Assembly: GCA_048940445.1 (NCBI GenBank)
Contig: JBHLON010000070.1
Location: 1-11,147 of the forward strand
DNA length: 11,147 bases
Direction of reading: 5' to 3'
Source of the DNA: Promethearchaeota archaeon
GTDB taxonomy: Archaea > Asgardarchaeota > Lokiarchaeia > Sigyniarchaeales > SOKP01
Shown one piece after another: positions 1-11,147 of the stretch. The notes under the pieces were generated by a model. It ran no database searches, was not told where the DNA came from, and saw nothing but the letters and a program-made list of their open reading frames with translations. Position 1 is the first letter of the stretch. Each line of letters opens with the position of its first letter. Position numbers and translations under genes: made by a program.

Positions 1-1091
1 TAATATTCTTGCATTGAATCATAGAGTGTTTGAAATTTTTTGTCAACTCTTTTACGAATCCTTTCGATTCGGAATATATTTAGAAGATGAGTTAATACAC
101 GAGTATAAAGTTCTCGAGGGTTCCATTCTAATTCATTATAAATCATAGTCATTTTTGCCTGAATCATTCCTCTTAAGAATCGCAAATCCTTCATTTTATT
201 TTCAATGGTTTCTAAACTCATAAATACATCGGAATATCGCTTACTAAATAGAATATCCAATGAGCTATTTATTGTCATCAGAGCGAATAGAACAGCTCTC
301 ACTTTTGGAGTAGGATCTAATATATGATCCTTAATATATTTAAATCGATATTCCTCTGCGGGCATATATAAAAATCCCGAATTTCTCTGAATGTAATGTA
401 ACTCAGAAAGCCGATTCGAAAAATTATTCTCTGTCCTTCTTTCAAAAAGCTCTTCAGAATAATCAGCCCATTCCCCAGAATAGATGCGAGTCCAGTAGCC
501 GATTACTTTTTTATATTTTTCTATATTTTCTCTATTCCATTGAACTGTAAAAGGAGTGGTTCTATTAGAAATGACGAAAGTGTATATTGGACTTCCTAAA
601 TCGAGAATTAAAAATTCATTTACTGTTTTATTATTAAATTCTTTAAGGATATCAACAGCAATAAAGGGAATTTGCTGTAGTAGATCTGGAGTTATTTGTT
701 CCTTCTTAAATTCTTCATTTTTAAAATATTCGACCTCGAATTTGAAGTATCCTAGAGTATTATATTCTAACTTTTTATTTTCTTCCACTTCTGAGTATTG
801 CTTATTTTCATCAGTATAAGGGAAATTTTGAAAAAATGGTTCCCAATCACATTCTATCGATATCGATTTTGCCATATCTTTTAATAGCTCTTTCTTTTCT
901 TCAGCATGAGGATATTTTTCTAAATATAAAAAAGCTTTACTGAGTTGCCTTTCATCTAGATTATGTATTTTTTCTAATAATAATGCTTCTATTTCTTCTG
1001 CCTTATTTTCACCGATAAACTCATTTGTATTAATAAAAGCACTTATATACCAATACTCTTTTCCGTAAATAAAACGTAAGTTTTCTTCCAT
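1..1091 (-). CDS. Hypothetical protein, >=363 aa, reaching the left window edge and absent from the ORF track; C-terminal helical region weakly resembles CorA/RMD1(DUF155)-like stalks
   Basis: Manual translation from the ATG at 1091-1089 (in-frame GTG just upstream, purine-rich AAGAGGG before it) stays open to position 3: MEENLRFIYGKEYWYISAFINTNEF...YWTRIYSGEWADYSEELFERRTENNFSNRLSELHYIQRNSGFLYM...NELEWNPRELYTRVLTHLLNIFRIERIRKRVDKKFQTLYDSMQEY. The last partial codon is TA-, so it is either Tyr or a stop. The family resemblance is by eye only. Confidence 0.85.
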   Translation of the reverse strand, partial: MEENLRFIYGKEYWYISAFINTNEFIGENKAEEIEALLLEKIHNLDERQLSKAFLYLEKYPHAEEKKELLKDMAKSISIECDWEPFFQNFPYTDENKQYSEVEENKKLEYNTLGYFKFEVEYFKNEEFKKEQITPDLLQQIPFIAVDILKEFNNKTVNEFLILDLGSPIYTFVISNRTTPFTVQWNRENIEKYKKVIGYWTRIYSGEWADYSEELFERRTENNFSNRLSELHYIQRNSGFLYMPAEEYRFKYIKDHILDPTPKVRAVLFALMTINSSLDILFSKRYSDVFMSLETIENKMKDLRFLRGMIQAKMTMIYNELEWNPRELYTRVLTHLLNIFRIERIRKRVDKKFQTLYDSMQEY

Positions 1092-1220
1092 CACAATTTG
1101 CCCTCTTATTAATTTTTTTAAAAAAGTGATTAAATAATTATTAAATTGTTATTCTATTTATTACTTTTTTTTCTTTTTTATTCTTCAAGTAATTTATCTG
1201 CTTCTATTAAGAAAATAGTA

Positions 1221-2039
1221 TTAATTAACCTTCTCTTTAGGTTTTAATTTAGCTTTAACTTTATAAAAGACTTTACTCCAATCAATATAGACAAGTAAAA
1301 AAAGAATAATAATGGAAGCTGCCCAAACTAATGAACTTTGTAAAATATCTATAGGATTACTAGGAGGTATAATTCCAGTTCGAGCAGCATTAAGGTCTAT
1401 ACCAAATAACCCGAACAAAAAGTTCCCTAAAGATGTATCAGCGAGCCAAATTGGTAGAGCACTGCACAAAAAACATAAGGTAAATTTTCCTATAAAACAA
1501 AATGCCAATGTCTTAACTAAACTATATTGAGCTAGTCCTAAAACAATTAAGAAAGGATCATCAGGAAGCGGGGTTGCTGCAAATAAGAAAATGAGAGCTG
1601 GAGCCCAACCCTTATCTACATACCTTTTCATACGTTTCATGCTTTTGGAATCTCCAATAAGTTCTTTCGAACTGCGTCCTACTAGCCATGCGCTTATTTC
1701 TCCAAGACTTGCACCTAATCCTGCGATTAATCCAATTAATATGGGATTTACATTCGGAATTATTGCAGATATTACAATTAAGGCAACAATATAGGGAACT
1801 GGAAAAAATATCGTAACATTACCGAAAATGCTAATTAAAAATATACCTAAATATATTCCAAAGTCTCCAAATTCATCATAAAACCATTGAACGCTATTGG
1901 CTAGCCATTGCCCAAAATTGATATCTAATAAAACTAAGAGTAAAAATGAGAATAAAATAATACAAATAACAAGAATTCCACCATACTTTTTTAAAAATAC
2001 TATAATATAGGTTTTTTTGTTGCTATCTTTTTTATTCAT
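1221..2039 (-). CDS. DedA/VTT-domain (SNARE-associated Golgi protein family) membrane protein, VMP1/YqaA-like
   Basis: 272 aa with several hydrophobic segments and two re-entrant-loop-type motifs (GNVTIFFPVPY; FAATPLPDDPFLIVLG). GLGASLGEISAWLVGR is typical of VTT domains. Confidence 0.85.
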   Translation of the reverse strand: MNKKDSNKKTYIIVFLKKYGGILVICIILFSFLLLVLLDINFGQWLANSVQWFYDEFGDFGIYLGIFLISIFGNVTIFFPVPYIVALIVISAIIPNVNPILIGLIAGLGASLGEISAWLVGRSSKELIGDSKSMKRMKRYVDKGWAPALIFLFAATPLPDDPFLIVLGLAQYSLVKTLAFCFIGKFTLCFLCSALPIWLADTSLGNFLFGLFGIDLNAARTGIIPPSNPIDILQSSLVWAASIIILFLLVYIDWSKVFYKVKAKLKPKEKVN

Positions 2040-2052
2040 TCAACATCTGACT

Positions 2053-2082
2053 AAAAAAAATTAAAAGAGATAAAAAAAGAAA
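2053..2082 (-). terminator. Oligo-U tracts downstream of the P-type ATPase (possible archaeal terminator or attenuator)
   Basis: The minus strand reads TTTCTTTTTTTATCTCTTTTAATTTTTTTT within the 48-nt gap before the DedA gene. Confidence 0.4.
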
Positions 2083-2087
2083 TAATT

Positions 2088-4943
2088 TTAGAATTTAATA
2101 CTTTTCAATCGTGCTAAATACTTTATTATTTCAATTCCAAAAATGCCAGGAAGAGCTAATAAAATGCAGATTAACCAATCAGTCCCGCTTAGGAACATAA
2201 AATTTAAATCAAGTCCAAAAGCGCTATTGATGTAATTATTAACTGAATATGAAAAGCATATAAATAAAACATGTATCGCTAGAGTGAACAAACTAATTAT
2301 TAATAAAGTACGCGAAAATTCTTCTTTTAGACTTTTGAAAATTGATTTATTAGGTCTTCTAAATGTCCAGATAAATGTAGTTTCAACAATATATAATGTC
2401 GTAATAAACATCGTTCTCGCTTTTTGGGCTATAAGAATTTCATCTGTAGTTCCAGAGAGATAACTAAGATTTGGATTGATATTCCATTCATTTAAGGGAA
2501 TTATTCCCCCTAATGTAAGTTGAAGAGCTAGTACCAGACCTATTCCCATTAAAAGTGCTTGTAATAATAATAATAGCCACATATTCTTATTTAATAACTC
2601 TTGTTCATTTCTAGGTGGTTCATTCATCACATCAGTAGGATAAGTATCAACAACTAATGCCAAAGAAGGGAGAGAATGAACAATTCCAAAGATGTAAATA
2701 TGCTGCCAATTACTCAGTAATTGAAAAAACGGTAAAAATTCATAGGTGAAAAAGATAGAAGCTTCCATTATATTTAAACAAATAAAAAAATATAAAATAG
2801 TTCGGATCTTAGCAAATAATCCGCGCCCAATTTTAACACCCCTCACGATCGAACTGAAATTGTCGTCACTGATAACCATATCAGAAGTCTCTTTAGCGAC
2901 ATCAGTTCCAGTGATTCCCATCGCTATACCTGCATTTGCTAGTTTTAGTGCGAGTGCGTCATTTATTCCATCTCCCGTCATGGCACAAATTTGTTCCTGT
3001 GTCTGATATTTCCTTACTATAACTTCTTTATCGGAAGGCTCTACACGAGCAAAAACGGATACCCTATTAAATTCATCAGGTTTTAATTTTTCAATATCTG
3101 CCCCCTCAATAACAAGATCTCCTTCTTTAAATATTTTCATCTGTGTTGCGATTGTTTTTGCTGTAGCTGGATGATCCCCTGTGATCATGACCACCTTAAT
3201 CCCTCCAGACTCGCTTTCCTCTACTGATTCTCTAACTCCCTGACGCGGAGGATCTAGAATTGATAGAAGACTTAAAAATGTTAATTCTTCTTCAATTTCT
3301 TCTCGCTTGAAATCATTATTTAAATTAAGCTCTTTATAGGCTACAGCTAGGGTTCTATATCCTTGATTTGCATGTGTTTGAATATTTTCAATTATCCTTT
3401 GATTGAGATTTTCATCTAAAATCTTTTGTTCGCCATTCATTTCAATCTTATTTGAAATTTTTAGGATTCTTTCGGGTGCTCCTTTACAAAATGCATAAAA
3501 AGTATTTTGATTAGAATTTAATCGGCATATTGTAGTCATTCTCTTGACTTCAGAATTAAAAGAAAATTCTTTTAAAATTTCAAACCTCTTTTTCAAAGAA
3601 TAAGGATCAAAGCCTGCTTTTTCTGCCAAAACAATTAATGCAGCTTCTGTTGGTGAACCTAAAGCCTTTCTTACGGCCATTTCTTTAATGTTTTTTAATT
3701 TCACTTGAACATCTTCATAGATAAGCTTAGCATTATTATTTAATACACTTGACTCAATGAACTTTTGAAATGTAAAATTATCTTTTAAAGTTATAGCATT
3801 CCCGTTTTCCATAATAATTCCTTCAGGCTCATATCCAGAACCTGTTACCTTATATTCTTTATTATTAATCCAAAATTTCTCGACAGTCATTTCATTTTTA
3901 GTAATTGTACCAGTTTTATCTGAGCAAATCACAGATACCCTCCCTAAAGATTCAATGGCAGAAAGATTTTTAATGATAACTCCACTTTTTGCCATATTTA
4001 GAACTCCTGTGATAAGAACAAGGGTGGTTAGTATCGGTAAATTAATGGGCATAATATTCATCGAGCGAAGGATTGAGTTAACAAGATCTTGCTTAATATA
4101 ATCACCGTAAAACTGATTATTACTAATCAAAATACTGAATTTATAAACAATGAGGACTGCTAAGCTTATAATTACAATTGTTCCTAGAATGTACCCTAAA
4201 TGATTTAGTTTTCGAGTCAGTGGTATGTCTTCAATACTTCCCATTTCATTTAATTGATTTGAAATTTTTCCAATTTCGGTATTAATTCCTGTTCTTGTAA
4301 TCATTGCTTTTGCTCTTCCAGTATAGACATATGTTCCCATAAACACCATATTAGATTGTTTCTGTATTGGTAAAGGCTTATTCTGTAACTTAACATTATC
4401 TTTCTCAGCGGGTTCACTTTCTCCTGTTAGAGGAGCTTCATCAATAGATAAATTAACAAAATCTAATATTCTTGCGTCTGCAGGAACTTTATCTCCTTGC
4501 TCTAATGTAATGATATCGCCTGGAGCTAGTTCTCTTGTAGGTATCTCAAATTGAATACCATCTCTCATTACTGTTGCTTTTAAAGCACTTATCTTTCTTA
4601 ACGATTCTAGTGCTTTCTGTGCTCTAAATTGCTGGATTATAACTGTCATCGAATTCATGAAAACAACTATAAAGGTAATTATAGTATCCTGTGGAGATCC
4701 TAAAATGAATATAATTAATCCGGAAACCAATAAAATAATAATCAGGAAGTTGAATATCGGAGCTAAATAAATTTTCCATATCGATTTTTTAATTTTAGGT
4801 AATTCATTATAGCCATATTTAGAATGTTTTAACTCGACATCAGTTAATTTTAGACCTTTTTCGGTGTCTGTATTAAATATTTCAACTAATTCAGAAACAT
4901 TTTTAGCATAATATAAATTATTTGGTAATTGAACTTCAGCCAT
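2088..4943 (-). CDS. P-type ATPase, P2A/SERCA-like scaffold with a non-canonical transport site (substrate unknown)
   Basis: 951 aa. Motifs present: YGYNEL, PGDI..GDKVPAD, LTGES (A domain), CSDKTGTIT (phospho-Asp D342), KGAPE, DPPR, MITGDH, VFARV.P..K and TGDGINDALAL, with about 10 TM segments. M4 reads PINLP instead of PEGLP. Confidence 0.97.
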   Translation of the reverse strand: MAEVQLPNNLYYAKNVSELVEIFNTDTEKGLKLTDVELKHSKYGYNELPKIKKSIWKIYLAPIFNFLIIILLVSGLIIFILGSPQDTIITFIVVFMNSMTVIIQQFRAQKALESLRKISALKATVMRDGIQFEIPTRELAPGDIITLEQGDKVPADARILDFVNLSIDEAPLTGESEPAEKDNVKLQNKPLPIQKQSNMVFMGTYVYTGRAKAMITRTGINTEIGKISNQLNEMGSIEDIPLTRKLNHLGYILGTIVIISLAVLIVYKFSILISNNQFYGDYIKQDLVNSILRSMNIMPINLPILTTLVLITGVLNMAKSGVIIKNLSAIESLGRVSVICSDKTGTITKNEMTVEKFWINNKEYKVTGSGYEPEGIIMENGNAITLKDNFTFQKFIESSVLNNNAKLIYEDVQVKLKNIKEMAVRKALGSPTEAALIVLAEKAGFDPYSLKKRFEILKEFSFNSEVKRMTTICRLNSNQNTFYAFCKGAPERILKISNKIEMNGEQKILDENLNQRIIENIQTHANQGYRTLAVAYKELNLNNDFKREEIEEELTFLSLLSILDPPRQGVRESVEESESGGIKVVMITGDHPATAKTIATQMKIFKEGDLVIEGADIEKLKPDEFNRVSVFARVEPSDKEVIVRKYQTQEQICAMTGDGINDALALKLANAGIAMGITGTDVAKETSDMVISDDNFSSIVRGVKIGRGLFAKIRTILYFFICLNIMEASIFFTYEFLPFFQLLSNWQHIYIFGIVHSLPSLALVVDTYPTDVMNEPPRNEQELLNKNMWLLLLLQALLMGIGLVLALQLTLGGIIPLNEWNINPNLSYLSGTTDEILIAQKARTMFITTLYIVETTFIWTFRRPNKSIFKSLKEEFSRTLLIISLFTLAIHVLFICFSYSVNNYINSAFGLDLNFMFLSGTDWLICILLALPGIFGIEIIKYLARLKSIKF

Positions 4944-5007
4944 TATTTTATTCTTGAAAATATTAATAATATTAAATAATTATAATTATAGAATTAAACC
5001 TTATTAA

Positions 5008-5982
5008 TTATATATCCTCCATCTTAATAGAAAGAGGGTCACCGATAATCTCTTTTAATATATTAAATTTCTTTCTTATTGTCGTACTTGAGAATTTTGT
5101 GGTTTCTTCTATAATACTTTGTGTAAATATTTTCTTATTGTCAAGTATTTGACCTATATAATAAATTAAGCCAGCAGTAAAGGCTTTATAGTTCAGATTT
5201 TGAATATCAGAATATTTAATCTTTTGTAATAATTTGTCGACAAATAACAGCATTTCAATTTTTAATTTATCATAATCAGATTTATTTGAAAATTGAGATT
5301 TTACTTTATCATAAGAAATGTTATTAAGGTCTTTTTGGAATAGAATTTTTATTTTTTCTTTTATCTCACGTTCCAAAACCGATTTGTCTTTAAGACTTTT
5401 ATCAAATGTGGTTTCAGTTCTCTTAACTTTAAGCATGGCATTGTTAAGCATCTTTTTATTGATTTTGTGACCTAGTTCTCTTGAAATTTTTATAAATTCC
5501 TCTATTCTTATACTGGTTGTATCTTTTATCTCCATCCAGAGGATAGCCAAAAAAATTATAACCATATTTTGATATGTATGTCTGTGATATTTATTATATT
5601 TAAGATATCTATCCTTAATTTCTCGATATTTTACACTGTCAATATTCAACCCTATTCCATAACTTTTGAATAATTCAATAGTTTTTTTTTGTTCAGTGAA
5701 ACTGGATTGATAGTCTCTAAACCATTTGTCTAATGTTTTGATTTGATCATACTTTTGTTTTATTTTTGGATCTTGAATTGCTTTTGAATCACCAATCCTA
5801 ATTTTTCTTTCATAGTTGATTTGTGAGTCTGAATAAGGAATTGGAGATGATGGTTCTTCAAAGGCAATGCGATCATCAAAAGTTAATCCGCAGTCTTTGC
5901 AAACTAGATATCCATCAACTTGTTCAATATTCTTATGTTCACATTTAGATTGTTCCGAAGTCAAATTTCTTTTTTTCTTCAA
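5008..5982 (-). CDS. Divergent TFIIB/TFB-like protein (Zn ribbon plus cyclin-fold repeats)
   Basis: 324 aa, TTG start. N-terminal C-E-H-x11-C-K-D-C-G Zn ribbon. The C-terminal AFTAGLIYY...FTQSIIEETTKFSSTTIRKKF matches the TFB second cyclin repeat/HTH (AAAxIY...TQxxIA......TIRxR). The middle region is highly diverged. Confidence 0.75.
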   Translation of the reverse strand: MKKKRNLTSEQSKCEHKNIEQVDGYLVCKDCGLTFDDRIAFEEPSSPIPYSDSQINYERKIRIGDSKAIQDPKIKQKYDQIKTLDKWFRDYQSSFTEQKKTIELFKSYGIGLNIDSVKYREIKDRYLKYNKYHRHTYQNMVIIFLAILWMEIKDTTSIRIEEFIKISRELGHKINKKMLNNAMLKVKRTETTFDKSLKDKSVLEREIKEKIKILFQKDLNNISYDKVKSQFSNKSDYDKLKIEMLLFVDKLLQKIKYSDIQNLNYKAFTAGLIYYIGQILDNKKIFTQSIIEETTKFSSTTIRKKFNILKEIIGDPLSIKMEDI

Positions 5983-6134
5983 AAGCAGTTCCCTTATTTT
6001 TAAGTCATAATTGATTGTTATTCAAAAAGAATTATATGCAAAATTTTTATTTAAATTTTTATTAAATGGCATCAAAATAATTATTATAAATAATTCTCTT
6101 ATTAAATAATAACTATAAATAATATTAAGAAAAA

Positions 6135-6698
6135 ATGAATAAAGATTTAATCTTTAAATTATTGAGATACTTCAGCGTAGGTTTTATTATTGTAATTGCG
6201 TTAGAGGTCATAGATATTGTTTTATTCAGCTCTATTATTAATCTTACTCTAGGTTTGCATAACCTTAGTATTATTAACATCATTTTTGTATCTGGTTTTA
6301 CACCTTTAGAGGTGGTAATAGAATGGTTAATATTAATTACAACTATTTGTGCATTTTTAATACTTGGAATTATATTATTAAACCTATCATTTAGAAGAAG
6401 ACTTGAAGAAGGGTTATTTGCGAGATTTATTCTATTAATTGGATTATTTTTTCTTATTTCTGGTTTAATTCAACTGTTTATTATTTATCAGTTAGGTGAT
6501 GCTGTAATTCACTATGATAGTACATCTATAATGTTCCAAACTGCTATTTATTCAGGAACAATAACTCCATTTATAGGAGTTATAATGTGGCTCTATTTTT
6601 CAGCTATGTGTATGGTCATTTTAATAGCAGGAACTGTTTTTGGAGGGGTAGGACTCAAATTACTTTTAGATTTTGGGAATAGAAATAAGGCAAATTAA
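6135..6698 (+). CDS. Hypothetical integral membrane protein (about 4 TM helices)
   Basis: 187 aa, ATG start. Four long hydrophobic stretches with a basic loop (SFRRRLEE). No family motif recognised. Confidence 0.8.
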   Translation: MNKDLIFKLLRYFSVGFIIVIALEVIDIVLFSSIINLTLGLHNLSIINIIFVSGFTPLEVVIEWLILITTICAFLILGIILLNLSFRRRLEEGLFARFILLIGLFFLISGLIQLFIIYQLGDAVIHYDSTSIMFQTAIYSGTITPFIGVIMWLYFSAMCMVILIAGTVFGGVGLKLLLDFGNRNKAN

Positions 6699-6723
6699 AA
6701 AAATTTGAAAAATCTTAATGAAT

Positions 6724-7647
6724 TTATAATAACTTTCTTTTAATCTGTTTAGCTCTACTTCTTAAGGTTACTTCTGTTATTTTAGCAATATCAGCAACCA
6801 GCGATTGAGTTTTTCTAATGGATCCATCTTTAGCGGCAATATATATACAAGCAGCTGCCAATCCTTTTGGATCTTTTCCTGTACGTTTCAATCCATTTTC
6901 AGAAGCTTTCCTGAGCATGTCAATAGCATGCTTTTGAACTGCCATAGGTAGGTCAAGTTCATTTCCAAAGCGAAATACGAGGCTTTCAGCAGTGATAGGT
7001 TGATAACGTAATCCTAATTCAGGTAAAACTTCTCTTATTATCATAGCTAAGCTTCTATGAACTGTTCTTCTTGGAGTCAATGATGCTTCACATACTTCAT
7101 CTAATAAACGAGGAAAATCATGAACCCTTATGGCAGCATATAAAGATCCCGCTATAAATCCATTAATTGAGCGGCCCATTGTTAACTTTTTTTTAGCTAC
7201 AATACTATAAACCTTCCAAGCAGTTTCGCTAATGTATTCTGGAATATTAAGTTTTGATGTTAGCATTTTTAGTTTAGGCTTAGCTTCCCAAAAGTTTCGT
7301 TCAATACTTGAAATTAAAGAATTTTGAATTTTTGATAACCTTGAGAATAATGCTTGTTCTTTTGGTCCTATAGATTTCCCTTTTGAGTCTGTTTTTGTTG
7401 ATGGTAACATCGTTCTCGGCCCGAAATCCCTCCATCTTGGCTCAGTTCTACGTCTAGTTTGAACTTCTTCAGCAGTATACGCCCTTCGCTCATTTCCTAC
7501 ATATGTTCTTTCAATTATAATTCCACAATTTAAACAAACTTTATTTCCATCTCTTTCTTCTATGTTTGGGTCTTCACAGCAATCACGAATTTGCAAATCA
7601 TCATCTAAATTCTTATTCTTCAGAAGATCACGATAAATATTATTCAT
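6724..7647 (-). CDS. tfb: Transcription initiation factor IIB (archaeal TFB)
   Basis: 307 aa. Zn ribbon (CC...VCLNCG), B-reader-like NERRAY, ERN linker, cyclin repeat 1 (MGRSINGFIAGSLYAAIR...PRLLDEV), cyclin repeat 2 (TGKDPKGLAAACIYIAA) and BRE-binding HTH (TQSLVADIAKITEVTLRSR). Confidence 0.96.
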   Translation of the reverse strand: MNNIYRDLLKNKNLDDDLQIRDCCEDPNIEERDGNKVCLNCGIIIERTYVGNERRAYTAEEVQTRRRTEPRWRDFGPRTMLPSTKTDSKGKSIGPKEQALFSRLSKIQNSLISSIERNFWEAKPKLKMLTSKLNIPEYISETAWKVYSIVAKKKLTMGRSINGFIAGSLYAAIRVHDFPRLLDEVCEASLTPRRTVHRSLAMIIREVLPELGLRYQPITAESLVFRFGNELDLPMAVQKHAIDMLRKASENGLKRTGKDPKGLAAACIYIAAKDGSIRKTQSLVADIAKITEVTLRSRAKQIKRKLL

Positions 7648-7758
7648 AATAACTCACTGTAAACAAAATGTCGAGAATATTTCTCTATTATAAAAAAATA
7701 ATGTTCTAAAAACTAGTCTTTATTATTCCTTTAATATTAACATAATATCCTAGTTGCA

Positions 7759-7773
7759 TTTATAAATCTTTGC
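7759..7773 (-). promoter_or_regulatory. Putative BRE + TATA box of tfb
   Basis: The minus strand reads GCAAAGA-TTTATAAA, a purine-rich BRE-like element abutting a TATA consensus, about 110 nt upstream of the tfb ATG. Confidence 0.5.
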
Positions 7774-7852
7774 TATAAAAACTCAAAATATTGAAAGTTC
7801 GTCCCATAAGATTCCCATTTGTTGAAAATTTTCAATTACTTCTTTAAAAGCA

Positions 7853-7867
7853 GTAAAAATTTATTTA
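7853..7867 (+). promoter_or_regulatory. Putative BRE + TATA box of the nitroreductase (and possibly aor)
   Basis: GTAAAAA-TTTATTTA about 48 nt upstream of the TTG at 7915. The AT-rich background limits specificity. Confidence 0.35.
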
Positions 7868-7914
7868 ATTAAGAATCTATTTCATCTAAAATTTAAATTT
7901 ATGAGGCTTTTATA

Positions 7915-8430
7915 TTGGATTTTTATGATGTTATAAAAAAAAGGAGAAGTCATCGGATTTTTAAATCTGGGATGATCCCCTCTAAGGAAAAAATTGAGAG
8001 AATATTAAACGCCGCCAGATTAGCTCCAACTTGGGCTAATTTCCAAGGAATGCATTATATAGTTGTTCAGAAGCCCGATAGGTTAAAAATCCTACGGAAT
8101 GCTATTGGACAAGATAAAAAGTTTGTAGATGCTCCTGTATTCATAGTTGGAGCAATTTTAGAATCTGGGTCTGGAGCGAATAAAAATGAAAAGTATTATC
8201 CTGTTGATTTTGGAATATGTTTTGAGCATTTAATTCTTGCTGCTACTTCTGAAGGGTTAGGAACATGCTGGATAGGAGCTTTTGATGAAGAAAAGGTTAA
8301 AGAGGTATTGGAGATTCCTAAAAAGTATCGTGTTTTAGGTTTAACTCCGCTTGGTTATCCTTTTAAAGAAAAAGGTGAAGTCACAAACAGAAAATCATTA
8401 GGAGAAATTGTCCATTATGATAAATTTTAA
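7915..8430 (+). CDS. Nitroreductase family flavoprotein (FMN-dependent)
   Basis: 171 aa, TTG start preceded by GAGG. Motifs: IKKRRSHR.F, ARLAPTWANFQ, LAATSEGLGTCWIG and PLGYP. Confidence 0.95.
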   Translation: MDFYDVIKKRRSHRIFKSGMIPSKEKIERILNAARLAPTWANFQGMHYIVVQKPDRLKILRNAIGQDKKFVDAPVFIVGAILESGSGANKNEKYYPVDFGICFEHLILAATSEGLGTCWIGAFDEEKVKEVLEIPKKYRVLGLTPLGYPFKEKGEVTNRKSLGEIVHYDKF

Positions 8431-8496
8431 AATTTCTACTTTTGTTCTACTTTTTTAAGAGGTAAAAGTAAAATAATTTTGATTTCTATCCTAATT

Positions 8497-10221
8497 ATGA
8501 AAATAGTCAGGATTAATTTAGAGTCTGATCAAGTAAATTATGAGGAAATTTCAAAAGATTCGAAATATTTCTTATTAGGAGGGAGAGGATTAACTTCTCA
8601 AATAATAATGGATGAGATTCCTCCTACTTGTGACCCTCTGAGTTCAGAAAATAAACTCATCATTGCTAATGGACTTTTAGCTGGAAGTCCGTTTCCTAAT
8701 TCTGCTCGCGCTTCTATAGGTGCTAAAAGTCCTCTGACTAATGGTATAAAGGAAGCTAATGTGGGAGGGCGCCCTGCTATGATGTTAGCAAGACATGGGA
8801 TTAGAGCAATTGTATTGGAAAATCAATCACCAAATCAAAAAGTAATTCTAATTCATAATAACAGAATTGAATTAATTTCACAAGAATATTATAAGAGATT
8901 GGGAAATTATGAGCTTCATAAAAAGATTAAGAAAAAGTATGGAGAGAATGTTGGAATTTTCTCAATAGGGCCTGCTGGAGAATTTATGATGAGAGCTGCG
9001 AGTGTAGCAGCAAATGATTTAGAAGGGTATCCAAGTAGACATGCTGCTAGAGGAGGATTAGGTGCTGTTATGGGGTCAAAAAACGTTAAAGCTATTGTTA
9101 TACTTCCTCCAAAATTATCAAAAGTGAAAATCAATGATATCAAGAAATTTAGGAGTATATCAAAACCATTCGCACAAAATTTGGCAAAAACTAGAAAAAC
9201 CTTTTCTACATTTGGAACCCCATTGATGATGAGACCGATGAATGAATACGGTGGAATACCTACTAAAAATTTCCGTATGGGTTCATTTGATAAAATTGAA
9301 AATATTACAGGGGAAAGACTTCATGAGATTGTAACCGCTAGAGGTGGTAAGAAGAGATTAGCTTGTATCCCTACATGTGTTATTAAATGTTCTAATTTGG
9401 TGCTTGATGAAAATGGAAATCATATTACATCCAGTCTTGAATATGAAACTATGGCATTAAACGGTACAAACCTATTAATTGATGATATTGACAGCTTAGC
9501 AAAAATTGATCATTTATGTGATGATATTGGAATAGATACCATAGAGTTTGGAGGAACTGTAGGTGTTGCTATGGATTGTGGAAAGATTGATTGGGGAAAT
9601 GCGGAAAGAGTCTTTGAAATTTTAGATACTGAAATTAGAAATAACTCTGAAATTGGTAATTTATATGGAAATGGGGTGAAAATTATTGGTGAAAAGCTCA
9701 AATCCAAAAGAATACCACACGTAAAAGGGCAAGGTATTTCTGCCTATGATTGCCGGGTTTTCAAAGCTATGGGTGTTACATACGCAACATCACCAATGGG
9801 GGCTGATCATACAAGCGGAGCAGCTATTGCAGGAAGGGTGGCTAGCAAACATAAAGACTATGGTGAGCTTACAGACAATGAGAAGAAATTAGATTTATCT
9901 TTCGAACTTCAAGTGTATACAGCTGTTTTAGACTCATGTGGTTGCTGCTATTTCATTGGACCTAGCTATGAAAATATGGATATTATCGCAAATGCTCTTA
10001 ATGCTATGTATGACCTAGATTTAAATAGAGATGATGTCATTAAGATTGGAGAAAATATTTTGAAAACTGAGCTTGAGTTTAATAAACAGACGAAAATTTC
10101 TTCAAATAATGTTCCAGAATTTTTCAGAAATGAACCTTCCAAACCAACAGATTTAATGTATACTTTTACTCATGAAGATTTAGCAAACTTCTGGAATCGG
10201 TTAGAGCATCATAAGTATTAA
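8497..10221 (+). CDS. aor: Aldehyde:ferredoxin oxidoreductase family (tungstopterin, [4Fe-4S]) protein
   Basis: Motifs: GGRGL, KSPLT, IGPAGE, ARGGLGAVMGSKNVKA, CIPTCVIKC, EYET, CDDIGIDTI, GADH and DSCGCC. The start is placed at ATG 8497 (MKIVRINL, the typical family N-terminus) rather than the track's TTG at 8479. Confidence 0.95.
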   Translation: MKIVRINLESDQVNYEEISKDSKYFLLGGRGLTSQIIMDEIPPTCDPLSSENKLIIANGLLAGSPFPNSARASIGAKSPLTNGIKEANVGGRPAMMLARHGIRAIVLENQSPNQKVILIHNNRIELISQEYYKRLGNYELHKKIKKKYGENVGIFSIGPAGEFMMRAASVAANDLEGYPSRHAARGGLGAVMGSKNVKAIVILPPKLSKVKINDIKKFRSISKPFAQNLAKTRKTFSTFGTPLMMRPMNEYGGIPTKNFRMGSFDKIENITGERLHEIVTARGGKKRLACIPTCVIKCSNLVLDENGNHITSSLEYETMALNGTNLLIDDIDSLAKIDHLCDDIGIDTIEFGGTVGVAMDCGKIDWGNAERVFEILDTEIRNNSEIGNLYGNGVKIIGEKLKSKRIPHVKGQGISAYDCRVFKAMGVTYATSPMGADHTSGAAIAGRVASKHKDYGELTDNEKKLDLSFELQVYTAVLDSCGCCYFIGPSYENMDIIANALNAMYDLDLNRDDVIKIGENILKTELEFNKQTKISSNNVPEFFRNEPSKPTDLMYTFTHEDLANFWNRLEHHKY

Positions 10222-10222
10222 C

Positions 10223-10240
10223 TTTATACTCTTCTTTTTT
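10223..10240 (+). terminator. Pyrimidine/oligo-U tract after aor
   Basis: CTTTATACTCTTCTTTTT just after the TAA, in a convergent intergenic gap. Confidence 0.45.
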
Positions 10241-10300
10241 ACTCTAATAAACTTTGATTTATGGTAGGAAGCTTAAAACATTAAAAATATTAATATATTA

Positions 10301-11101
10301 TTAATAAACTTGTGTTAACCTTTCGATAGTAGCAAGAGTAATTTCTCCTTCAAGTTCTACACATTTCTTATAATCTTCTTTAAACCATGGTACAATCCAA
10401 TCTTCAAGAGGATTGTAATAACTATAAAAGATTGCTCCAAATTTAACATGTTTCATCTTACAAATAAAAGCCAGTGTATTCAACTCTCCATTTTCCATTG
10501 AAATGTAGCCCTCTTTCTGTAAATCTTCAACCTGCTTAACTTTTATTCTATAAAATGCCTCTGTTGAATAGTTTTTCCCAATATGATAATTGTTGGTTCT
10601 TTTCTTTATCTCATCGAAAAATGTACTTACGATTCCTTTATCAATTAATGTTTGATCATCAGATTCACGTCCATAGAAAATAGAAATACCATCTGGACCT
10701 ATTGCATGAGTTGGGAGTAAAAAATCCAGCAATTTAACGTTTCTCGCGATTCCCCAGGCACCACACACTAATAAGAGAACTCTTGCTCCGCAAGTGATTA
10801 AATCCTCTGCTACTGATGCAATGGGAGAAGCACCCATAGGTGGAGTTATTACTGAAATCGGAATTCCGTTATAGATTCCCCTATAAAGTTGATTAGAAGC
10901 ATAAGGGTGATAGGGTGTTAACCATTCAGTAGCTTGCAAATTTAATCTTTTTTTTAGATATTCCAAAAGAGAATTAGAAAACAAAAGAATAGCAAATTTA
11001 TCACATGCAAACTCTTCTTGGCTTTTATTTGAATATTTGAGTGCGGACTCAATAACATTTTCTGAACGAATACAATATTCTTTTTTAAATGAATTTGCCA
11101 T
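10301..11101 (-). CDS. Nucleoside phosphorylase-like protein (PNP/UDP NP-I family) with divergent active-site motifs
   Basis: Motifs: GIYNGIPISV..PMGASPIASVAEDLITCGAR, DG.S.FY, STEAFYR and LQKEGYISME. The ATG at 11101 is preferred over the track's TTG at 11110. Confidence 0.82.
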   Translation of the reverse strand: MANSFKKEYCIRSENVIESALKYSNKSQEEFACDKFAILLFSNSLLEYLKKRLNLQATEWLTPYHPYASNQLYRGIYNGIPISVITPPMGASPIASVAEDLITCGARVLLLVCGAWGIARNVKLLDFLLPTHAIGPDGISIFYGRESDDQTLIDKGIVSTFFDEIKKRTNNYHIGKNYSTEAFYRIKVKQVEDLQKEGYISMENGELNTLAFICKMKHVKFGAIFYSYYNPLEDWIVPWFKEDYKKCVELEGEITLATIERLTQVY

Positions 11102-11127
11102 ATTTATCAAGAAGAGATTTAATCCAA

Positions 11128-11140
11128 GAAAATTTATATA
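11128..11140. promoter_or_regulatory. TATA box near the right edge (could serve the phosphorylase on - or an off-window gene on +)
   Basis: GAAAA-TTTATATA on +. TATATAAA on - lies about 32 nt upstream of ATG 11101, a spacing compatible with a leaderless or short-leader transcript. Confidence 0.4.
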
Positions 11141-11147
11141 TCTACTG

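Follow-up and report, generated by a model that had tools for sequence, protein, structure and literature searches.

What does a P-type ATPase carry across the membrane when its scaffold is that of a Ca2+ pump and its transport site is not? The question is raised by a gene in the Promethearchaeota archaeon assembly GCA_048940445.1 (contig JBHLON010000070.1, positions 1 to 11,147; this whole stretch of 11,147 nucleotides (nt) is called the window). The gene (2088..4943, reverse strand) encodes a ten-helix pump of 951 amino acids. The initial annotation of the window had noticed a PINLP motif in transmembrane helix M4, had likened it to the PISL motif of P4 lipid flippases, and had proposed an active pump with a non-Ca2+ substrate, possibly a lipid, as either a convergent or a precursor-like flippase.

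The gene product is a P-type ATPase that is intact and strongly conserved. It has the P2A (Ca2+-pump) scaffold and belongs to an undescribed subfamily, an Asgard clade here called the PIN/His clade. We are highly confident of its identity and ancestry. The substrate class is less secure: judging from sequence, a non-Ca2+ small-cation pump with a rebuilt site I has about an even chance of being the right description. No account of the motif or of an Asgard P-type clade was found in the literature searched, most subscription papers being outside its reach.

An intact pump on a P2A scaffold

The M4 helix (4035..4070; all pump features are on the reverse strand) contains an unwound PINLP, P299-P303 (nt 4049-4035). 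SERCA residue numbers are those we take to be standard, transferred to the pump by alignment. I300 corresponds to SERCA E309 and N301 to SERCA G310; in an alignment with LMCA1, I300 falls on the PEAL/PEGL glutamate. The phosphorylation motif DKTGT (3906..3920), with D342 (nt 3920), begins 42 residues past I300. The motif, its spacing and the intact catalytic machinery, all reported initially, were confirmed on the 951-residue open reading frame: TGES at residue 173 (A-domain, 4416..4427), DKTGT at 342, KGAPE at 487, DPPR at 564, TGD at 588 and GDGIND at 657. The catalytic motifs are invariant in the alignments, and TIGR01494 scores 269 bits against a cut-off of 62.

Among 120 homologues (68-100% identity), 115 have PINLP and five PFNLP; none has Glu or PEGL, and N301 is invariant. 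The retention of the motif in these homologues, together with the intact catalytic motifs, ruled out an assembly error or decay. Conservation within a clade, which the initial annotation had put forward as a point to check, is thus borne out, as is the archaeal host: homologues are named Promethearchaeota or Lokiarchaeota, and a genome of the same genus is "Promethearchaeota archaeon DZG_bin1.240".

The best hidden Markov models (HMMs) are those of P2A pumps, with 458 bits (cut-off 703) and 454 bits (cut-off 798). The pump is below every P2 cut-off, a weak test, as several true PEGL pumps also fall short. Diagnostic alignment columns tell the same family: 75 are common to the clade and P2, five to the clade and P4 (N247, I300, I562, G569 and I691) and seven to P2 and P4. 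With these columns, the best HMMs and the TGES motif, the P2A scaffold named in the initial annotation stands.

The predicted structure (predicted local distance difference test, pLDDT, 84.3; predicted template modelling score, pTM, 0.75) supersedes a first, shallower model (pLDDT 74.5). It has the usual M4 break, with residues 296-301 non-helical between two helices. In a structure search, PfATP4, SPCA1, LMCA1, SERCA2, MgtA and AHA2 (Z 33.2-29.5, identity 23-31%) ranked above ATP8A1, Drs2 and Neo1 (Z 27.8-27.5, identity 18-21%). The structural comparison envisaged at the outset therefore bore out the unwinding of M4 and placed the model nearer to P2 and P3 pumps than to P4. Such a ranking reflects overall kinship, not substrate.

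A rebuilt transport site

Transport-site residues were compared over 127 clade, 197 P2 and 22 P4 rows, with some redundancy. At the E309 position the clade has Ile (73%), Trp (15%), Val (5%) or Phe (4%). Glu is not among its common residues there, compared with 98% of the P2 controls, a figure that reflects their selection by the PEGL motif. The G310 position is Asn (82%) or Ser (16%). In M6 (2676..2690), SERCA N796 is lost: its position (F752 in the pump) is Tyr, Phe, Ser or Val, with Tyr or Phe in 63% of the clade. The T799 equivalent is also lost (V755), and the D800 position is His in 99% (H756). The site I equivalents are retained, namely N768 (N724, 89%) and E771 (E727, 99%) in M5 (2763..2777), and E908 (E854, 95%) in M8 (2382..2384); the last is Glu in 38% of P2 controls.

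Other SERCA-type residues are altered as well, E109 to Gln and an acid of M1 to Asn. The cytoplasmic entry, which includes N65 (4751-4749), Q105 (4631-4629) and N247 at the cytoplasmic start of M3 (4203..4205), is de-acidified. Over five entry positions the mean number of acids is 0.23 in the clade, 2.9 in P2 and 1.2 in P4.

According to these alignments, the pump has lost Ca2+ site II and retained site I in a rebuilt form, N724/E727/H756/E854, with N301 as a new polar residue on the unwound M4. The predicted signature (P-hydrophobic-Asn in M4, His in M6, Glu in M5 and M8) matches no family compared. The initial annotation missed this larger signature, comprising a His in place of SERCA D800, the retained site I residues (Glu/Glu/Asn) and the de-acidified entry. 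Its proposal of a non-Ca2+ substrate gains from it: the site II ligands are lost, and a canonical Ca2+ pump is very improbable.

Basal clade members have Trp, Phe, Val or Leu at the M4 site, which counts against a precursor-like flippase. They retain a P2A-like AVAAIP stretch before PFNFP, PWNFP or PWSFP. Their motifs read as a stepwise change from a PEGL ancestor, Ile being typical only of the clade core.

Some variants were also seen. In family f26, named Heimdallarchaeota (L167:6095-9094, L161, L171, L174), the M8 Glu is Ile in all four fetched members, and M8 gains a His about two turns earlier; in families f10, f17 and f30 the same His occurs alongside the Glu. A Nanoarchaeota P2A pump that is not a clade member (L121:4896-7658) has PNALP, with Asn for the M4 Glu, and a normal Asn and Asp in M6, an independent loss. 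Outside the transport site, R335, L664, K841, R863 and P62 (pump numbering) are clade-specific. They comprise extra basic residues near the cytoplasmic membrane face, a Leu replacing Pro after GDGxNDA, and an additional Pro in M1.

Comparison with the P4 family

The P4 set consisted of 33 flippases from metagenome contigs, retrieved by the DGET motif (its 100% DGET is by construction). All have PISL or PVSL, with 52-62 residues between the Ile and the phospho-Asp, never 42. The spacing of 42 cited in the initial annotation is a P2/P3 trait. An insert in the linker between M4 and the P-domain is P4-specific (PMC11460456), and it is absent from the pump and the clade. DGET is the typical P4 dephosphorylation motif (PMC11460456); the pump has the P2-type TGES, and Thr is found in 95% of the clade. 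An M5 Lys (ATP8A2 K873) and an M6 Asn (ATP8A2 N905) are important for ATP8A2 function (PMC4937031, PMC11460456). The Lys position, Lys in 95% of full-length P4s, is L723 in the pump, with no Lys among the common clade residues. The Asn position, Asn in 86% of full-length P4s and not in the clade, is F752. P4s are without acids at the places of E727, H756, E854 and N724, which the clade conserves at 99%, 99%, 95% and 89%.

The P4 model TIGR01652 (cut-off 431) gives 117 bits for the pump, 84-117 for clade members and 98-117 for PEGL controls. PF16212 was over its cut-off in none of 301 Asgard genomes, and no control genome gave a match either. Direct P4 membership is ruled out by the HMM score, the spacing of 42, the diagnostic columns, and the lack of the insert, DGET, M5 Lys and M6 Asn. 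A search for the P4 motif in viral contigs gave unrelated chance matches only.

Two residues had been taken initially as pointing to P4. The Ile at the E309 position does occur in 95% of P4s. It is found in P3A as well, in the PIAMP of AHA2 and the PIALP or PVALP in M4 of the source genome's own P3A pumps, so it does not point to P4 specifically. The preceding Asn, N296, is not conserved: it is Asn in 70 and Gly in 48 of the 120 homologues, and Asn in ~17% across the clade. The pump is not a P3A member by score, with 344 bits for TIGR01647 (cut-off 615).

Occurrence of the clade

A profile search of 1.84 billion representatives returned ~37 clade members, ranked ahead of and among PEGL pumps. 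Clade members group in one fully supported clade in both FastTree and IQ-TREE trees. An M5-M10 profile separated them from other pumps (members at least 172 bits, PEGL pumps at most 132) and was used as the genome-wide clade detector in Asgard and other archaeal phyla. With it, clade members were detected in 302 of 400 Asgard genomes, in 71 of 90 of high quality, and in 121 of 134 genomes of the source genome's family; in about a dozen small Asgard families there were none in this search. The signature is present in fetched members from 11 further Asgard family codes. The names of clade-bearing sources include Helarchaeota, Heimdallarchaeota, Heimdallarchaeaceae, Hodarchaeota and Odinarchaeota.

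Outside Lokiarchaeia there is usually one copy per genome. Family f2 (G028, G032, G025) has four to five clade members per genome, compared with one in most non-Loki Asgard genomes. The source genome has a second clade member (PINIP) on contig C65, one canonical PEGL pump, two P1B pumps and four P3A-like pumps, the last on contigs C3, C74 (two genes) and C84, with the C3 copy cut by the contig end. The cultured Promethearchaeum syntrophicum MK-D1 has three clade members and two canonical PEGL pumps. An RNA run holding the MK-D1 gene had flat depth over genes and spacers on long contigs, indistinguishable from DNA, and was not used.

Outside Asgard, the clade was detected in 14 of 201 genomes of a phylum with members named Thermoplasmatota. 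Searches of 251 genomes from the phylum to which a Bathyarchaeia genome belongs, and of 201 from that of a Methanosarcinales genome, did not find it. The Thermoplasmatota branch (L154:8001-10955, P0302-P0325) reads PWSFP in M4 and has the His of M6 and the Glu of both M5 and M8. With a PWNFP type of the Loki class, it takes a basal position in the clade.

Candidate substrates

As a small-cation pump, the protein would run through a normal E1/E2 phosphoenzyme cycle, in which the Glu-His-Glu site passes a single small cation that is not Ca2+. Two kinds of cation are about as likely as each other: a transition metal (Mn, Fe, Zn, Co or Ni), for which the His would be a ligand, and H+ or a monovalent cation (Na+, K+, NH4+), for which it would be a titratable built-in counter-ion. 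Built-in counter-ions have been described for P1A, P1B, P3A and P4 pumps, including a His in a P1B-4 pump (PMC10654040). The role of I300 would be that of a hydrophobic gate, as in the P3A proton pumps; its likeness to the P4 PISL would be convergent. The neutral cytoplasmic funnel suggests an entry route for the substrate other than that of SERCA, and possibly import.

Several points weigh against such a pump. In f26, where the M8 Glu is Ile, only one acid is left, a weak basis for binding a divalent metal, and every model has to account for this family. A non-cationic substrate would be equally consistent with the loss of entry acids (0.23 compared with 2.9 over five positions). No neighbour gene is common to pump loci across Asgard families, and none points to an ion. 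We know of no characterised precedent for a pump that keeps site I and loses site II. The one-site P2 pumps that have been described show the reverse, keeping site II and losing site I (PMC4937031).

The strongest competitor, possible but doubtful, is a convergent lipid flippase. Here H756, neutralised by E727 and E854, would permanently occupy the cation site as a tethered charge, in the role of the P4 M5 Lys, and permit spontaneous phosphorylation. A lipid head group (e.g. archaetidylserine) would then bind the I300/N301 backbone in E2P and trigger dephosphorylation, with I300 as hydrophobic gate. The M4 pattern P-hydrophobic-[N/S], with Ser there in basal members, is nearer to PISL than the P3A pattern P-[I/V]-A, and N247 matches the P4-conserved M3 Asn (82% in both clade and P4s, 17% in P2). 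The de-acidified entry would also suit a lipid. On a purpose-built P4 profile the clade has a slightly higher mean than the P2 controls (111.5±16.9 and 100.7±18.3 bits), the two being overlapping and their rows not independent. CDC50 (PF03381) was not found over its cut-off in 301 Asgard genomes, nor did any control genome give a match, and P4B functions without it (PMC10654040). Also in favour, MK-D1 has been proposed to make phosphatidylserine-like lipids, and the inner membrane leaflet of Asgards to be anionic (10.1101/2025.05.16.653879). Against a flippase speak the absence of the M5 Lys, M6 Asn, M4-P insert and DGET, the retention of two buried glutamates, and the variable N296.

The neighbouring gene offers a further argument in favour of a flippase. 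A VTT/DedA-family membrane protein (PF09335 above cut-off) is encoded 48 nt downstream of the pump (1221..2039, reverse strand), and the VTT/DedA superfamily includes lipid scramblases. An orthologue adjoins a pump gene in 10 of the 21 genomes that have one. However, those are 21 of 61 genomes of the source family, whereas the pump is in 121 of 134, and the VTT gene does not cluster as a common neighbour in the other Asgard lineages examined. As genomic context it is a weak hint at most.

Transport, inward or outward, of a small organic cation or another solute (polyamine, quaternary amine, ammonium-like), in a loosely P5B-like manner, is improbable. The substrate would be bound by the acids together with aromatic side chains at positions 300 and 752. 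In keeping with this, basal members have Trp or Phe at 300, and in 63% of the clade residue 752, beside E727 and E854, is Tyr or Phe. The clade core, however, has Ile at 300, and the P5 model gives 236-265 bits for the clade and 208-281 for P2 controls, no excess.

That the pump is a one-site Ca2+ pump working on site I alone, in line with public annotations, is very unlikely. The equivalents of N768, E771 and E908 are retained, and Ca2+ pumps are the nearest families and structures. Yet the E309, N796, T799 and D800 equivalents are lost together, the pump is below every P2 cut-off, and canonical PEGL pumps are present in the same genomes (one in the source genome, two in MK-D1). Any other substrate is hardly probable at all.

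Relationship to eukaryotic P4 flippases

P4 has no known prokaryotic member (PMC10654040), and P4 and P5 are called eukaryote-specific in reviews. The trees were sampled without P5, P2B, P2D and eukaryotic P2, the P4 branch is very long, and regrafting used a fixed backbone. Unconstrained trees never join P4 to the clade. In constrained tests, P4 as sister to the clade was not rejected (p 0.24, 0.84), nor was a control pairing of P4 with P3A (p 0.28). When P4 was regrafted on the optimised 75-row backbone, five deep positions lay within 2.3 log-likelihood units; the best was outside P2, P3A and the clade, and sister-to-clade had p 0.46 in the approximately unbiased (AU) test. All six positions inside the clade were rejected (p 0.011 to 7e-7). 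Among these are placements of P4 as sister to the core with Ile (p 0.0007), to the Heimdall-labelled group (p 0.0004) and to this pump (p 5e-5); in a smaller 33-row set, a grouping of core and P4 was borderline (p 0.051).

P4 descent from within the clade is thus disfavoured, and the shared Ile is best read as convergent. The precursor-like flippase of the initial annotation fares likewise, the P4 hallmarks also being missing. In the phylogeny proposed there, nesting of P4 within the clade was rejected, and a sister relation (p 0.24-0.84) was neither favoured nor rejected. In a 75-row AU test the constrained tree scored 28 units above a quick free tree, which was due to the longer search and not to the grouping of P4 with the clade. 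The joining branch of that tree is near zero length, and regrafting P4 elsewhere on the same backbone scores equal or better.

A deep sister relation stays possible, without positive support. As a statement about ancestry, whatever the substrate, it is very improbable that the whole clade is the archaeal sister group of eukaryotic P4 flippases or close to their ancestor. Apart from the sister tests, this reading can draw on the occurrence of the clade in Heimdallarchaeota-labelled genomes and on the lack of prokaryotic P4s. Set against this are the near-equal deep placements, the rejection of placements within the clade, and the diagnostic columns, of which P4 has as many in common with P2 (seven) as with the clade (five).

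Neighbouring genes

Two clade members are usually in tandem in relatives. The left-end gene (3-1094, reverse strand), cut by the window edge, matches residues 1-365 of a 574-residue protein of a same-genus genome; no Pfam family was found for it. The end of contig C65 (L051:8379-8651) matches residues 484-574 of the same protein. The left-end gene thus appears to continue on C65, which suggests the same tandem order for the source genome: C65, with the PINIP paralogue, probably follows the window after a gap of ~350 nt.

A TFIIB gene and a gene for a divergent protein with a weak TFIIB-type zinc ribbon (5008-5982 and 6724-7647, both reverse strand) flank a four-helix membrane gene (6135-6698). 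Throughout the genus, this TFIIB block is conserved on the upstream side of the pump, along with genes for a nitroreductase and an aldehyde ferredoxin oxidoreductase.

Implications

According to a recent review, prokaryotes still harbour undescribed P-type ATPase diversity (PMC10654040). The transport site is what defines a P-type ATPase family, and the signature here matches none compared, in a clade that occurs in three quarters of Asgard genomes. Its members are annotated as Ca2+ or generic cation pumps. Arguments for Ca2+ signalling have drawn on counts of Asgard "Ca2+ ATPases" (PMC7997004), and these counts may therefore be too high. With three members beside two PEGL pumps, P. syntrophicum makes the substrate directly testable, with a built-in control.

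If the substrate is an ion, this would be a P2-type pump working from site I alone. If it is a lipid, the pump bears on the origin of membrane asymmetry. More tentatively, most Asgards may carry an ATP-driven flippase that evolved from a Ca2+ pump, independently of P4 or as its deep sister, with a His-Glu-Glu charge replacing the P4 lysine. The closest relatives of eukaryotes would then have an active route to membrane lipid asymmetry.

Comparison with known systems

Two systems outside the trees of this analysis serve as precedents only. The P6 pump CtpE of M. tuberculosis has lost the M6 Asp and imports (PMC10654040), but keeps PEGL and has Ile at the M6 site. P1B-4 pumps use His as internal counter-ion (PMC10654040), on an architecture other than that of the pump.

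With P4 flippases (ATP8A1 6k7g, Drs2 6roj, Neo1 7rd6) the pump shares the Ile after the M4 Pro with a small polar neighbour (Asn here, Ser in P4), and Asn at the M3 start and at SERCA 768. It has none of the P4 10-11-residue M4-P insert, DGET, M5 Lys and M6 Asn, whereas it retains the second M4 Pro and the buried Glu/Glu/His; identity is 18-21%, and the two are not nested together in trees.

The P3A H+-ATPase AHA2 of Arabidopsis (5ksd) comes close in M4, where PIAMP has Ile after the Pro and a second Pro, with TGES, the same spacing and a titratable residue at the SERCA D800 position. That residue is a proton-acceptor Asp in AHA2 M6 and His in the pump; M5 differs, and P3A is a separate branch.

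The P2A pumps (LMCA1 6zhf/6zhh, SPCA1 7yag, SERCA) are most alike in scaffold, with the ten-helix fold (Z 30.4-30.8), TGES, the spacing of 42, PxxLP, the Asn and Glu of M5, the 75 diagnostic columns, and the top sequence matches in PDB and NCBIfam. The pump differs from them in E309 to Ile, G310 to Asn, N796 to an aromatic residue or Ser, D800 to His, E109 to Gln and the M1 acid to Asn, and it stands under the family cut-offs in a separate, fully supported clade.

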